DNA of 64,000 nucleotides from Microgenomates group bacterium Gr01-1014_5. Its GTDB lineage: Bacteria > Patescibacteriota > Microgenomatia > UBA8517 > UBA10165. Both the position numbers and the translations under genes were made by a program. The notes under the pieces are model-generated. The model ran no database searches. It worked only from the letters and a program-made list of their open reading frames with translations, and had not been told where the DNA came from. The stretch covers positions 25,635 through 89,634 of the forward strand of contig VMGE01000001.1 of the NCBI GenBank assembly GCA_007376395.1. Reading direction: 5' to 3'. This document shows positions 14,865 to 21,370 of the stretch, in pieces (the first letter of the stretch is position 1; the number at the start of each line of letters is the position of its first letter).

Positions 14865-17800
14865 ATGTCGCAGTTTTTACGAAGCTATTTAGCTACAAAA
14901 CTTACTTTAAGGCGTTCAATTACTGACCCTGAAAAGTTAAATACCAGTATAAGGTCAGCAAATGTAGATTTAAACCCTCATCAAGTTGACTCCGCCGTAT
15001 TTGCGTTTAATAGTCCTCTCTCAAGGGGCGCCATTCTTGCTGATGAAGTCGGATTAGGTAAAACAATTGAGGCAGGACTTATTATTAATCAATTATGGGT
15101 CGAGGGGCAAAGAAAAATATTAATCCTAGTACCTGCATCTTTGCGAACTCAATGGGCAGATGAACTTAGAGATAAGTTTGGACTTGATTCTACAATTCTA
15201 GATTCCAAAATACTGAAACAATTACAACAATCTACCGATTCGTTTAATCCTCTTGATAATCCCAAAATCTTTATAGCTTCTCATAATTTTGCATATAAAA
15301 ACGAATTACATGTTAAAAAAACACCTTGGGATTTAGTAGTTATTGATGAAGCACACAGAATGAGAAATGTTTATAGGAAGGGTAACAAAACTGCAAAAAA
15401 ACTCAGAGAGACTATTTTAGGAAGACCAAAATTATTATTAACAGCAACTCCTTTACAAAATAGCTTAATGGAATTATTCGGCCTCGTTAGTTTTATTGAT
15501 GAAAAATATTTAGGCGACCCTGACTCTTTCAAATTTTTATATGTACAGCAACGAGGCACTAATAATGAGGCACAAAGGACTAAATTATCAGATCTTAGGG
15601 AGAGATTAATGGGGATAATTGATAAAAACACTGGCGAAACAGAGGGTGGAATAATGACTAGAACTCTTAGAAAACAGGTTAGAGGTTTAATCCCATTTAC
15701 CAATAGATTCAATATCACAGAAGATTTTAATCCAAATGACGACGAGGTAGAACTCTATAACAGCGTAAGTGATTATATTCAAAGACCTCTTCTAGCTTCT
15801 ACTAAGGCAACACAACGACACATGATGGAACTTGTTTATAGAAAAATATTAGCAAGCTCGTCGTTTGCTATTGCCGGAACTCTATTTCGGGTATCTCAAT
15901 TTCTAGCTAAAAGGTTGCAAAAGGAACACAAGGTTCAGATTGAAGAATTACAAGCCGTAGCCGATTTAGTATTAGTTGATGCCGACCAAAGGTTTGGCAG
16001 AAAATTTGATAAATTCGAAGTCGAAAAAGTTGAGGAAGTAGTTGAAGAAGAACAATTATCAATATTAAACGATATTGAGCTCTCGCTTGATGATTTAGAA
16101 GAAGAGGAAGGAGACGCTATTCAGGATGAACTAACAAAAATTGAAGAGGGCGAAGATTCCCCTAAGGAGTTGGAGGAAATACAAGAGAGAGAAATTGATC
16201 ACAAGTTTTCAAAAGAGGAAATTATTAGTGAATTTAAAGATGTTCTTGGCTACTACTTACTTGCTACTTCAATCGATAAAAATCAAAAAAGCCAATCATT
16301 GATTAGAGCGTTAAAAAAAGTTTTCGATCATGCTGAAAAAAAGAATTGGCCTAAAAAAGCAGTAATCTTTACCGAGTCGCGCAGGACTCAAGACCACCTC
16401 GAAAACATATTATCTCTGGCTGGTTATGAAGATAATATTATCTTGTTTAATGGTTCTAATGCCGGTAAAAAAGCAAAAGATATTTATCAAGAATGGGCTA
16501 ACGAGTTTCCTGACGAAGCAGAGAAAAATCCAAAATCTATTAGTTTGAGAAAAGCGTTAGTTTGGAAATTCAGAACCTTAAAAGAAGCTATTTTAATCAC
16601 TACTGAGGCTGGTGCAGAAGGTATTAATTTACAATTTTGTAATATTGTAGTGAATTATGACCTTCCTTGGAATCCTCAAAGGATAGAGCAAAGAATAGGA
16701 AGATGTCATAGATACGGACAGGAATTAGATGTATTAGTTATTAATTTTCTCAATAAAAGAAATTATGCGGATGAAAGAGTTTATGAATTACTACGAGAAA
16801 AAATAAAGCTATTTGGAAACTTGTTTGATTTTAGCGACAAAATCCTTGGAACTGAAGAGCAAACTGATGATGGTTATGAAGTTAGAGAAATTGCATTGGG
16901 TTCTTTAGATAGTGGCGTTGGATTTGAACGAAAGGTGCTTAATATCTATCAAAAATGCAGAACCAAAGTTCAAATAGAGAAGGAATTTAATCAATTAGAG
17001 TTAGATTTGTCGAGTGAGATAGAAGAAAAATTTGAAAATACACAAAGAAAAGTTATCCAACACTTCGATGAAGAAGTTAGGGCTAAATTAAGGATTAGAA
17101 ATCAAAAAATATCTGAAATGCTTAACTCTTTTGATAGAGATTTAGAGCGTTATATTAAGCTAGTTTTTAACTCTGGACTAAGGCAAATTGATGAACATAG
17201 ATTTGAAGTTAAGCATGTCCCTAAAGATATTGAGAAGTCTGATATTAAAAATCTGGTTGGAAAAATATTAGGAATTGGGGTAGTTACAGATATCGAAAGA
17301 CAAAAAGGTGTACTACCAATACACACAGAAACACAATATTTTTCTGATTTACTTAAAAAAGATGCCAAAGATAAGGATTTTATTTATAAGATTACCTTTA
17401 GCCATGACGGTGAGTCAAAGCGCTTAGATTTTAAAGATATTCATGGGAGGAATGGATTATTGAGCATTGTAAAAGTAGTTTGCCGTAGAAAAACAATAAA
17501 TAATATTGATGAAGTATTTGAAGAATTAGTTTTTACTTGCTTAGTAAAAGATGAAGCATCTTGGGCACTTCCTACAAAAGTTGAGGATGGAAAAGGCTGG
17601 AGTAACATTGGGAGTTATAAAGCAGAAAAAATAGTAAATTTATTGGTTAAAAATGAAAAACAAGCAGAATTTGAGATTCCTAATATTCTCAAAATATGTT
17701 CAGAAGAGAATATAAATTTAAAGAAGGAAGAGTTTATTGAGAAAAACCAAGGTTTTATAGAAAAAATGCGCGATCAATTAAATCAATATAGCGATGATGT

Positions 17801-18086
17801 TCTATTAAGATTCAAAAGAGAGATGGACGAAAGAGAGGAAGAAATTAGGGCGCTAGAAAGAAGTATGAAAGGCTCTAAGACGACAGGATTTCATGAACGA
17901 CAACAAATTCAGCAAGATATAGATAAAAAGCAACGACAATATGCCCAAGCAGTCAAGAAACACGCAGAAATGCAGTTGGGTTTATTCAACGATAAAGATA
18001 AGAGTTTAAAAGATTTAGAAAAAAAATTGACCTTAGGTTTTGAACTAGTACAATTGGCAACAATTTCATTTACAATTGAATCATGA
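14865..18086 (+). CDS. SNF2/RAD54-family SF2 helicase (DrmD-like), long C-terminal extension
   Basis: Motif I ADEVGLGKTIEAG, II VVIDEAHRMRN, III LLLTATPLQNS, V-VI TEAGAEGINLQ...YDLPWNPQRIEQRIGRCHRYGQ. Stop overlaps the next start (ATGA). Confidence 0.85.
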   Translation: MSQFLRSYLATKLTLRRSITDPEKLNTSIRSANVDLNPHQVDSAVFAFNSPLSRGAILADEVGLGKTIEAGLIINQLWVEGQRKILILVPASLRTQWADELRDKFGLDSTILDSKILKQLQQSTDSFNPLDNPKIFIASHNFAYKNELHVKKTPWDLVVIDEAHRMRNVYRKGNKTAKKLRETILGRPKLLLTATPLQNSLMELFGLVSFIDEKYLGDPDSFKFLYVQQRGTNNEAQRTKLSDLRERLMGIIDKNTGETEGGIMTRTLRKQVRGLIPFTNRFNITEDFNPNDDEVELYNSVSDYIQRPLLASTKATQRHMMELVYRKILASSSFAIAGTLFRVSQFLAKRLQKEHKVQIEELQAVADLVLVDADQRFGRKFDKFEVEKVEEVVEEEQLSILNDIELSLDDLEEEEGDAIQDELTKIEEGEDSPKELEEIQEREIDHKFSKEEIISEFKDVLGYYLLATSIDKNQKSQSLIRALKKVFDHAEKKNWPKKAVIFTESRRTQDHLENILSLAGYEDNIILFNGSNAGKKAKDIYQEWANEFPDEAEKNPKSISLRKALVWKFRTLKEAILITTEAGAEGINLQFCNIVVNYDLPWNPQRIEQRIGRCHRYGQELDVLVINFLNKRNYADERVYELLREKIKLFGNLFDFSDKILGTEEQTDDGYEVREIALGSLDSGVGFERKVLNIYQKCRTKVQIEKEFNQLELDLSSEIEEKFENTQRKVIQHFDEEVRAKLRIRNQKISEMLNSFDRDLERYIKLVFNSGLRQIDEHRFEVKHVPKDIEKSDIKNLVGKILGIGVVTDIERQKGVLPIHTETQYFSDLLKKDAKDKDFIYKITFSHDGESKRLDFKDIHGRNGLLSIVKVVCRRKTINNIDEVFEELVFTCLVKDEASWALPTKVEDGKGWSNIGSYKAEKIVNLLVKNEKQAEFEIPNILKICSEENINLKKEEFIEKNQGFIEKMRDQLNQYSDDVLLRFKREMDEREEEIRALERSMKGSKTTGFHERQQIQQDIDKKQRQYAQAVKKHAEMQLGLFNDKDKSLKDLEKKLTLGFELVQLATISFTIES

Positions 18087-21000: not shown

Positions 21001-21370
21001 TGGAGAAAATCCATTTGATAAAACTGAAACCATTTTTGATGATACTTCAAAATGGGGAGTAAGAATTGATGGTAATAAACCTGAAGATATAGATGATTGG
21101 AAAATAGTGGCAATTAGTTATGATGAAAAAACAAAAAGAATTTTTGTAAATTCTGGGCAATATTTCGAGGGAATTGAAAAAGAAGTATGGGAATTTATGG
21201 TTGGGGGTTATCAAGTTTTAGAAAAATGGCTGAAGGATCGTAAGAAAGCTGGAAGAACTTTATCATACGAGGATCAAATTCAATATATTAAGATTTCAGT
21301 TTCACTTCGAGAAAGCTTAAGAATTATGAAAGAAATTGATGAAATTATTCCAAAATGGCCTTTAGAATGA
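18083..21370 (+). CDS. MmeI-like Type IIL/IIG restriction-modification enzyme (N-terminal PD-ExK nuclease + gamma-class N6-adenine methyltransferase + target-recognition domain); PglX/DrmMI-like
   Basis: N-terminus GFPDIEV...GYVEVK (PD...ExK); GVYYTPKPVVDYIV (motif X), VLDPATGTGTFLM (motif I), VITGNPPYSNYGQ (motif IV); about 500-aa C-terminal region. Confidence 0.8.
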   Translation: MNPFDKLKSELKRLETGYREESYYRSLCEFLEAYGSGKEYLHMLNISATSNPNSESIGEGIGFPDIEVRQNRRLVGYVEVKTPDENIDNPAYSTQFIKYRESLENVIFTNFKKWILYTWDKDGKPQKTEEAEWDYHQDLGTEQLKKLLTIFFEGQSYQAKTPHQLAIALARKTRLLSQQVEEALIAKNPDKKLVDLKKTFEKTLIQDISDHQFANIFAETIAYSLFLAKLEHYEKGSNEDFSLRTAVDFLPKNVPIFKDLYQLTGGRVEPITQGIYKATEILIEQLNFADIERIYKKLVEHKPGEDPVIQFYEPFLSEYDPEERKARGVYYTPKPVVDYIVRCVDHILKNKFDKKKGLGDESVQVLDPATGTGTFLMSVIQNIYADIEKENKPLGEEAIKRKFKDVVSNHILKHLYGFELLVAPYAIAHLKLTLELERLGFNFSMTEDDQDKENDRLKIFLANTLDDPNQPPHSLFGFESITDESEKARLVKKNEPILVITGNPPYSNYGQMNQGDWILNLLQDYKKDLIEKKINLDDDFIKFIRFAQWKLEHTGQGIFAMITSSTFIDGITHRQMRKSLLETFDEIYIYNLHGNIRRNEVAPNGIDDENVFQIMTGVSINFFIKYPEKKLETIVKSSELWGTRSKKFEVLLDEEFNNTKWQTVNYLEFNDKFRNTVWGKKFGSDLNFFVHKGLDAIIEYGNFWGISDIFPEKGLGLKTERDNLTIHFSKMDLENVINDFRNLDENSLRIKYGLGSDSRDWKINYAKKDLHEHMEDENYISEFNYRQFDTRYIWYSGKTRGFIGTPGFAMMRQFQNKMNLGLISSRTVYGSESWQDIFVTSKMFEFGIMASRPGNSAPVFPLYLYEQKSSQISLLGVGSGMASRVNISSEFIKEFSGKLGLVFVETGQGDLENNFGPEDVFYYTYAVFHSPTYRTRYAELLKIDFPRVPLTKNKELFKKLIKKGNELVNLHLLGENPFDKTETIFDDTSKWGVRIDGNKPEDIDDWKIVAISYDEKTKRIFVNSGQYFEGIEKEVWEFMVGGYQVLEKWLKDRKKAGRTLSYEDQIQYIKISVSLRESLRIMKEIDEIIPKWPLE

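Follow-up and report, generated by a model that had tools for sequence, protein, structure and literature searches.

Why should a restriction enzyme from a family whose characterised members work alone be encoded in overlap with an SNF2-family ATPase? The question is raised by a 64,000-nucleotide stretch of contig VMGE01000001.1 of Microgenomates group bacterium Gr01-1014_5 (hereafter the window), in which two genes on the forward strand overlap. The first (14865–18086; 1073 amino acids, ATG start) encodes a RapA/DrmD-like SNF2-family ATPase, and the second (18083–21370; 1095 amino acids, ATG start) a single-chain enzyme for restriction–modification (RM), of Type IIL and of the DrdV and Borrelia BBE02/BBQ67 family. 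The original prediction described them as a helicase coupled to an MmeI-like nuclease–methyltransferase, and as a two-polypeptide analogue of the Type ISP enzymes. The junction was read directly and is as predicted: positions 18080–18089 read atcATGAatc, with the helicase stop codon TGA (18084–18086) overlapping the RM-gene start codon ATG (18083–18085) in a forward-strand ATGA at 18083–18086. Four-nucleotide ATGA overlaps are frequent in operons and carry little weight taken singly. Our analysis indicates that the two genes very probably constitute a conserved, horizontally mobile and functional two-gene RM cassette, and it suggests that they represent a variant, so far undescribed and driven by ATP, within a class of restriction system that is already known.

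The RM protein combines in one chain the features of Type IIL/IIG enzymes, namely a D...ExK nuclease, a gamma-class N6-adenine methyltransferase and a C-terminal recognition domain, all encoded on the forward strand. The N-terminal nuclease domain (about amino acids 1–135; nucleotides 18083–18487) encloses a PD-(D/E)xK motif, GFPDIEV...GYVEVK, at amino acids 62–81 (18266–18325; residues D65, E79 and K81), recognised from invariant residues and the predicted fold. The methyltransferase domain (amino acids about 309–592; 19007–19858) contains motif I, LDPATGTGTF (366–375; 19178–19207), and the NPPY motif (503–506; 19589–19600); it matches N6_Mtase (5.4e-11) and Eco57I (1.7e-8) in Pfam, and MmeI_Mtase at a score of 26.2, under the model cut-off of 27. 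A Type ISP-type target-recognition and C-terminal domain follows (708–1083; 20204–21331; Pfam Type_ISP_C 7.1e-82). Within the clade of close homologues, amino acids 701–900 form the most variable stretch (mean conservation 0.43–0.53 vs 0.7–0.9 elsewhere), and low conservation across residues 700–900 is what one would expect where a recognition domain shifts in specificity.

Which known enzyme does this protein resemble most? The top PADLOC model was REase_MTase_IIG (PDLC03610; 694 bits, profile length 1096); PglX scored weakly (4e-4) and DrmMI gave no match at E <= 0.01. Sequence searches of the PDB ranked LlaBIII best (4.5e-42), followed by DrdV (1.1e-32) and LlaGI (1.4e-32), with alignments that begin at about amino acids 255–300 and cover the methyltransferase and recognition regions. 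The N-terminal 298 amino acids searched alone gave no meaningful match to PDB sequences; the nuclease is assigned on the basis of its motif, the predicted fold and a full-length structural match to DrdV. That match was obtained with an AlphaFold model built from 20 homologues, with a mean predicted local distance difference test score (pLDDT) of 63 and values of about 72–88 across most of residues 1–200. Foldseek against the PDB placed DrdV (7lo5) first, at 7e-28 over about 1120 columns, which is full length including the N-terminal domain; LlaBIII and LlaGI followed at about 1e-23 to 1e-20, then PglX (3e-9) and MmeI (1e-6). In the model, the nuclease core has an alpha-beta-beta-beta-alpha-beta order, with D65 just ahead of strand 66–70 (strand 2) and E79 and K81 at the end of strand 73–80 (strand 3), the classical PD-(D/E)xK placement. 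The one-chain architecture that had been likened to MmeI, PglX and DrmMI is present, but the nearest relatives are DrdV and BBE02/BBQ67 rather than those three. Judged by its sequence and predicted structure, the RM protein belongs with the single-chain Type IIL/IIG enzymes, in the DrdV/BBE02–BBQ67 family.

Poor conservation of the nuclease residues in homologues had been named in advance as a possible objection to this architecture. Among 20 homologues of 48–69% identity, G62, P64, D65, G76, E79 and K81 were invariant, as were D367, P368, T370, G371, T372 and G373 of motif I and residues N503–Y506. Further, the pattern G-x-P-D ... G-x-[IV]-E-x-K was kept by almost all of the 52 full-length enzyme relatives recovered, down to about 25% identity and with stand-alone enzymes included; the exceptions were L033 and L053, with an unaligned N-terminus, and L028, with a short one.

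The upstream protein is indeed an SNF2 helicase, and its type can now be given as RapA/DrmD-like. Pfam recognised SNF2-rel_dom (4.9e-33, amino acids 53–304) and Helicase_C (1.1e-18, amino acids 483–618), and the best PADLOC model was DrmD (PDLC02619; 564 bits), followed by weaker matches to BrxHI/II, HmaA (168 bits) and DpdE. The NCBIfam model DISARM_DrmD_b reached 557 bits with a cut-off of 950, and the other DrmD model 224 with a cut-off of 610; the helicase is thus predicted to be a DrmD homologue, not an equivalog. RapA was its best PDB match, both by sequence and by Foldseek (about 4e-19 over about 1150 columns). Across 25 helicase homologues, Walker A (G63, G65, K66 and T67), DEAH (D161–H164), motif III and motif VI (Q609–R613) were invariant. 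In the structure model (pLDDT 67), the motor starts at about amino acid 30 without a Tudor-type N-terminal domain, an acidic insertion lies between the lobes, and an alpha+beta domain (772–933), two long helices (940–1054) and a terminal strand follow. The matches in Pfam, PADLOC, PDB sequences and Foldseek bear out the domain reading of both proteins, which are predicted to be catalytically intact.

A second nuclease, on the helicase, was also considered and rejected. Pfam Tox-REase-2 matched weakly at amino acids 957–998 (E 0.0066) with no stretch passing, and no conserved D/ExK pattern was present in the alignment of the C-terminal alpha+beta domain.

Do the two genes form a unit, or do they merely lie side by side? 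A linkage scan covering 185,579 genomes, each representing a species, yielded 79 loci. In all 16 that held a close enzyme homologue (47–61% identity) and enough upstream DNA, an SNF2 gene (47–55% identity) lay directly upstream on the same strand; these loci came from metagenome-assembled genomes labelled as candidate phyla radiation (CPR) lineages, Deltaproteobacteria, Bacteroidetes, Bacillota and Thermodesulfobacteriota. The same order was found in L084, L167 and L168, and an upstream SNF2 gene is probable in L166, where it is cut by the contig end. In total, at least 19 further loci from several phyla carry SNF2 directly upstream of a close enzyme homologue (46–58% identity); in those with unambiguous start codons, the junctions lie between an overlap of 4 nt and a gap of 8 nt. 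Enzyme homologues of 45% identity or less had no SNF2 gene (L013, L018–L070, L044). One RM gene copy of 58% identity (L040, 9001–12264) is in three pieces with no SNF2 gene upstream, and is apparently a decaying cassette. Clustering of neighbouring open reading frames (ORFs) found only the SNF2 and enzyme genes to be common to the pair loci; the downstream genes vary (AAA_21/SMC-type ATPases and others), and in 7 of 15 pair loci the opposite strand encodes a large serine recombinase.

The histories of the two genes are also congruent. In a neighbour-joining tree, computed without support values, the SNF2-linked enzymes form one clade with the unlinked L013 and L044 as successive sisters, which points to one acquisition. 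Over 13 loci, the pairwise identities of the helicases were correlated with those of the enzymes at a Mantel r of 0.90, a value reached in none of 5000 permutations. It had also been asked whether the helicase occurs independently of the methyltransferase in related genomes; within this helicase clade the two are strictly linked. The idea of two independent defence genes that happen to be neighbours draws on the surrounding island, which is packed with unrelated defence genes (CBASS, PLD and Cas4-like), and on the existence of SNF2-only defence proteins such as HmaA (PMC11232893). Against it stand the same-strand, overlapping or abutting arrangement in every locus with upstream DNA, in several phyla and with no other conserved neighbour, as well as the monophyly of the linked enzymes and their co-divergence with the helicases, and we regard mere adjacency as highly improbable. 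The SNF2 and enzyme genes are co-transcribed, are co-inherited as a unit and are probably translationally coupled.

Two of the loci, L003 (labelled Bacteroidetes) and L004 (labelled Bacillota), apparently carry the same cassette, being alike in ORF lengths, spacing, identities to the window proteins and downstream genes. This likeness reflects either a very recent transfer or a binning error.

No enzyme relatives were found on viral contigs. The plasmid collection contained stand-alone enzyme relatives only and second-tier helicases only, and thus no cultured example of the pair. No description of the SNF2–enzyme pair was found in the literature searched, which did not cover REBASE and subscription-only papers.

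What, then, distinguishes the window enzyme from its stand-alone relatives? A tblastn search of plasmids with the enzyme returned 174 records, led by Borrelia linear plasmids (33–34% identity over 94–96% of the query). The homologue on lp56 of B. burgdorferi B31 is 33% identical to the window enzyme and has no helicase neighbour; it is taken to be bbq67 because Casselli et al. (10.1101/375352) place bbq67 on lp56. In that study, BBE02 and BBQ67 are reported to be bifunctional RM enzymes, with methylation of one strand at GNAAYG and CGRKA, and to constitute the transformation barrier (10.1101/375352). DrdV, a Type IIL enzyme without a translocase, shares with the Type ISP enzymes the origin of its methyltransferase and recognition domains, and it cleaves only once several DNA-bound molecules assemble (10.1101/2021.01.06.425610). 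The window enzyme resembles DrdV (7lo5/7lvv) and BBE02/BBQ67 in length, in the nuclease and methyltransferase motifs and in the succession of N-terminal PD-(D/E)xK domain, helical connector, gamma-class N6-adenine methyltransferase and recognition domain in one chain. The difference lies in the partner: DrdV and its Borrelia counterparts act by themselves and have no adjoining helicase gene, whereas the window enzyme is a member of a small, derived clade in which SNF2 is always coupled upstream.

The comparison with Type ISP enzymes stood in part. LlaGI and LlaBIII (5ffj, 4xqk) have homologous methyltransferase and recognition domains (LlaBIII 4.5e-42; Type_ISP_C 7e-82), and in both cases an ATPase of the superfamily 2 (SF2) type is tied to the module; in the Type ISP enzymes this homologous module is fused to a translocase (PMC3874165). 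The motor and the placement of the nuclease differ. A Type ISP enzyme is one polypeptide that unites an N-terminal Mrr-like nuclease with an SF2 motor of the ISP type and a coupler domain (PMC3874165), whereas the window system consists of two ORFs separated by the stop codon at 18084–18086, has an SNF2/RapA-like motor with no conserved nuclease motif in the helicase alignment, and carries its nuclease on the methyltransferase chain, as in DrdV. A separately encoded motor has a precedent in CglI/NgoAVII (R2H2), in which a site-specific nuclease subunit and a separately encoded SF2 helicase-like motor communicate over long range along DNA (PMC5861437). The window enzyme is not a Type ISP enzyme; its possible mode of action may nevertheless be closest to that of Type ISP.

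How might such a mode of action proceed? Type ISP, Type I and Type III enzymes sense their sites one-dimensionally, and stand-alone Type IIL enzymes use three-dimensional synapsis. By analogy with characterised relatives, the window enzyme would read a short asymmetric site, methylate one strand of host DNA at N6-adenine and cut unmethylated DNA with its N-terminal PD-(D/E)xK nuclease. The SNF2 protein would dock on the enzyme as an ATP-driven double-strand DNA translocase, and movement along DNA or reeling of DNA, driven by ATP, would bring distant unmethylated sites together or allow them to be sensed in one dimension. The outcome could be either a collision, as in ISP enzymes, or looping of the Type I kind that leads to a synapse like that of DrdV. 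The conserved nuclease and methyltransferase motifs, the intact ATPase motifs, the strict linkage, the single clade, the co-divergence and the Type ISP precedent argue for a functional cassette in which SNF2 serves as the translocase of the enzyme, and for this reading as a whole, which is the one we favour, we see roughly even prospects.

Do the closest relatives of the helicase support such a role? When metagenomes were scanned with the helicase alignment, 80 loci were obtained, one being the pair itself and 79 (L085–L163) encoding sister helicases of 34–45% identity. The gene next after the sister helicase was, in 45 of these 79, an N6_N4 methyltransferase of 1083–1165 amino acids that matched the PADLOC Type III Mod model (607 bits), and in 27 loci Type III Res then followed (985 bits; ResIII and RE_endonuc). 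The order on the Salmonella plasmid CP123678.1 (33469–43484) is a helix-turn-helix (HTH) gene, SNF2, an IS256 insertion, a methyltransferase and a DEAD helicase; sister SNF2s were also detected on plasmids of Salmonella, Klebsiella and Providencia, the majority of which are predicted to be conjugative. No name for the SNF2 plus Type III arrangement was found in the literature searched. These triads hold the closest helicases outside the pair and, like the pair, have SNF2 as the leading gene of an operon whose RM module modifies a single strand by methylation; their partner, however, is a two-subunit system with its own motor and nuclease in Res, whereas the window partner is a single-chain Type IIL enzyme. 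In L080 (9001–15858) and L081 (9001–16912), SNF2 is followed by a UPF0758_N protein of small size and by a Type IIG protein that is Eco57I-like and 945–1176 amino acids long, the L080 arrangement adjoining a type III CRISPR-Cas locus. In L082 the helicase relative precedes an HEPN protein. RapA/DrmD-like SNF2 partners have been published for DISARM class 1, BREX type 3, Hma/BR, ARMADA II and an ietAS variant (10.1101/2021.12.28.474362; PMC12839542; PMC12458937; 10.64898/2025.12.08.692795). Most of the SNF2 partners identified are methylation-based, asymmetric-site systems, a suggestive pattern in a sample shaped by the search patterns used.

Several of these observations weigh against SNF2 as the translocase of the enzyme. 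Both the interaction between enzyme and SNF2 protein and the translocation are steps that we infer, and the structure models are of moderate confidence only (pLDDT 63 for the enzyme and 67 for the helicase). Close sister helicases accompany complete Type III systems; since Type III systems already have a motor, SNF2 supplying a missing motor is not the sole reading. DrmD-like SNF2s have been recruited to unrelated systems, e.g. ietAS (10.64898/2025.12.08.692795), and the stand-alone relatives restrict DNA without a motor (10.1101/375352). Such relatives predominate overwhelmingly: the enzyme family comprises 11,428 clusters at 50% identity (E <= 0.001), and only about five of its best 150 representatives fall within the identity range of linked enzymes. 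Almost every one of these 150 is 1000–1130 amino acids long, with a few longer ones of 1277–1545 that are far below fusion size, and no SNF2–enzyme fusion protein was present among them.

Some of the same evidence would suit an accessory SNF2 protein that acts like RapA, stripping or recycling a tightly bound enzyme of slow turnover or clearing RNA polymerase, nucleoid proteins or phage DNA-protecting proteins from the sites. The helicase resembles RapA over its whole length, the post-motor domains included, and its close sisters, also on plasmid CP123678, accompany Type III systems that have their own motor. In addition, ietAS, BREX type 3, Hma/BR and ARMADA II use DrmD/RapA-like SNF2s as modular additions (10.64898/2025.12.08.692795; PMC12839542; PMC12458937), and the stand-alone enzyme relatives need no partner (10.1101/375352; 10.1101/2021.01.06.425610). 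An auxiliary factor would, however, be expected to be lost or swapped at times, yet the linkage is strict and the genes co-diverge. The N-terminal Tudor-type domains of RapA are also absent, the window motor starting at about amino acid 30 (PMC12839542). A RapA-like accessory role is possible in our assessment, and rather unlikely.

The similarity of the helicase to DrmD raises another question, namely whether the pair is a reduced system of the DISARM class 1 kind, made of DrmD and a methyltransferase, in which defence does not run through the enzyme nuclease. DISARM class 1 (DrmD and DrmMI), BREX type 3 (BrxHII and PglXI), Hma/BR and ARMADA II (ArmA and ArmB) resemble the pair in joining a RapA/DrmD-like SNF2 to a large adenine methyltransferase and in using asymmetric sites (10.1101/2021.12.28.474362; PMC12839542; PMC12458937). 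These systems depend on additional genes in their core (DrmABC; BrxC/PglZ; a DUF499 ATPase; a YprA-like helicase) that the window cassette lacks altogether, and their methyltransferases belong to other families and have no conserved N-terminal nuclease. For Hma in particular, the cassette holds no such ATPase gene, and its methyltransferase is of another family than the DUF1156 type (PMC12839542). For DISARM, the best named matches of the helicase are to DrmD (PADLOC 564 bits, NCBIfam DISARM_DrmD_b 557 bits), and in Serratia class 1 DISARM a deletion of drmABC did not remove protection against T1 and M13, and a deletion of drmD and drmMI lowered protection against Nami (10.1101/2021.12.28.474362). 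A small nuclease-like protein of the PLD family (HxK) is encoded 295 nt upstream of the pair (14112–14570, forward strand; Pfam PLDc_2 1.9e-11) and could serve as the DrmC equivalent, with a weak PADLOC match to DrmC (6e-5). The PLD gene is, however, no part of the conserved cassette, having no homologue next to the pair in 15 other loci, and the helicase falls under both NCBIfam DrmD cut-offs. DrmA and DrmB (DUF1998) were not found among the window ORFs scanned (all but one of those of at least 400 amino acids in the 64-kb window) or in related loci. Moreover, the methyltransferase had no DrmMI match and is of another family, DrmMI being pfam13659 (10.1101/2021.12.28.474362), and the nuclease triad of the enzyme is strongly conserved. 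A reduced DISARM is improbable on this balance, and the window enzyme is neither DISARM nor Hma/BR.

Returning to SNF2 as the translocase of the enzyme, we tentatively entertain a further possibility: that the pair is a distinct ATP-dependent class, in which a DrdV-type enzyme with a recruited SNF2 translocase has recreated the ISP logic convergently. More broadly, RapA/DrmD-like SNF2 ATPases may serve as a general addition to those defence systems in which only one DNA strand is marked, at asymmetric sites (Type IIL/IIG, Type III, BREX and DISARM).

The genes around the pair vary in how far they may belong to it. An XRE-family HTH protein of 65–70 amino acids (14567–14779, reverse strand; Pfam HTH_3 2.2e-18) is encoded divergently from the SNF2 gene and may be a controller, its membership in the system being uncertain. 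A small HTH gene also lies directly upstream of SNF2 in L016 and in the sister system of the Salmonella plasmid CP123678, and in P0186 an HTH is fused to the helicase. Downstream of the RM gene, four genes run head-to-tail at 21372–24337, encoding a 168-amino-acid protein, a Cas4-like nuclease, a 145-amino-acid SduA/DUF4263-like fragment and a membrane-anchored trypsin-like protease. The 168-amino-acid protein (21372–21878, forward strand) has a D..EVK motif (SVDILISD...YKLEVKS), no Pfam or PDB match and no counterpart in other pair loci; it is a possible small PD-ExK nuclease. The Cas4-like PD-(D/E)xK nuclease (21811 or 21883 to 22638, forward strand; Pfam PDDEXK_1 1.2e-12) has homologues near the pair in L007 and L008 only, both CPR. 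These two genes are window- or CPR-specific accessories, and their membership is uncertain. No terminator-like site was found on the forward strand between 14865 and 24684, and a promoter scan was uninformative, with 45 promoter-like sites against 47 expected.

Where does the cassette reside? It lies inside a low-GC stretch at about 14–36 kb (0.32–0.36 vs about 0.40) that also holds a cyclic oligonucleotide-based antiphage signalling system (CBASS), with a 1-TM (single transmembrane segment) effector (24550–25107; PADLOC Effector 2.7e-62) and an oligonucleotide cyclase (25109–25873; PADLOC Cyclase 4.2e-85, Pfam SMODS). Type IV secretion genes follow on the reverse strand, namely VirB4/TraG-like (26510–28327), TraC-like (28320–28940), pilin/TrbL (29427–30791) and coupling protein (32652–35207). 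A large serine recombinase (35706–37286, forward strand) overlaps a tRNA-Gly gene (37223–37297, reverse strand). The low GC, the type IV secretion and defence genes and the tRNA-Gly-overlapping recombinase fit an integrative conjugative element, and 14000–37300 of the window looks like such an element of a CPR bacterium, with the cassette as cargo. No att-type direct repeats of the tRNA-Gly end were found. The rest of the window consists of housekeeping genes, e.g. UvrABC, Dxr and a tRNA cluster. Just past the island, seven tRNA genes (Phe, three Leu, Val, Pro and Gly) lie at 38768–39680, and the local GC peak of 0.46 is due to this cluster. The ORFs at 7030–9261 (reverse strand; 743 amino acids) and 41643–43109 (forward strand; 488 amino acids) had no Pfam match at the thresholds applied.

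What would the pair mean for the biology of these enzymes? Translocating Type ISP and Type III enzymes spare replicated DNA by needing head-to-head sites. For Type IIL enzymes, which methylate one strand, how newly replicated host DNA is spared while phage is killed has been described as an open question (10.1101/2021.01.06.425610). If SNF2 is indeed a recruited translocase, its one-dimensional tracking would let systems that mark one strand distinguish foreign DNA that is unmodified from host DNA that has just been replicated. The clade offers a natural experiment, one enzyme family with and without a dedicated SNF2 motor, and setting a linked enzyme beside the sister enzymes that lack the linkage (L013, L044) could reveal directly what the motor adds. 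No established role for DrmD/BrxHII-type SNF2 helicases was found in the literature searched, and the pair would provide a minimal two-protein handle on the function of these helicases of DISARM, BREX type 3, Hma and ARMADA. It also adds a widespread RM variant, carried on mobile elements, to CPR bacteria and other uncultured lineages.

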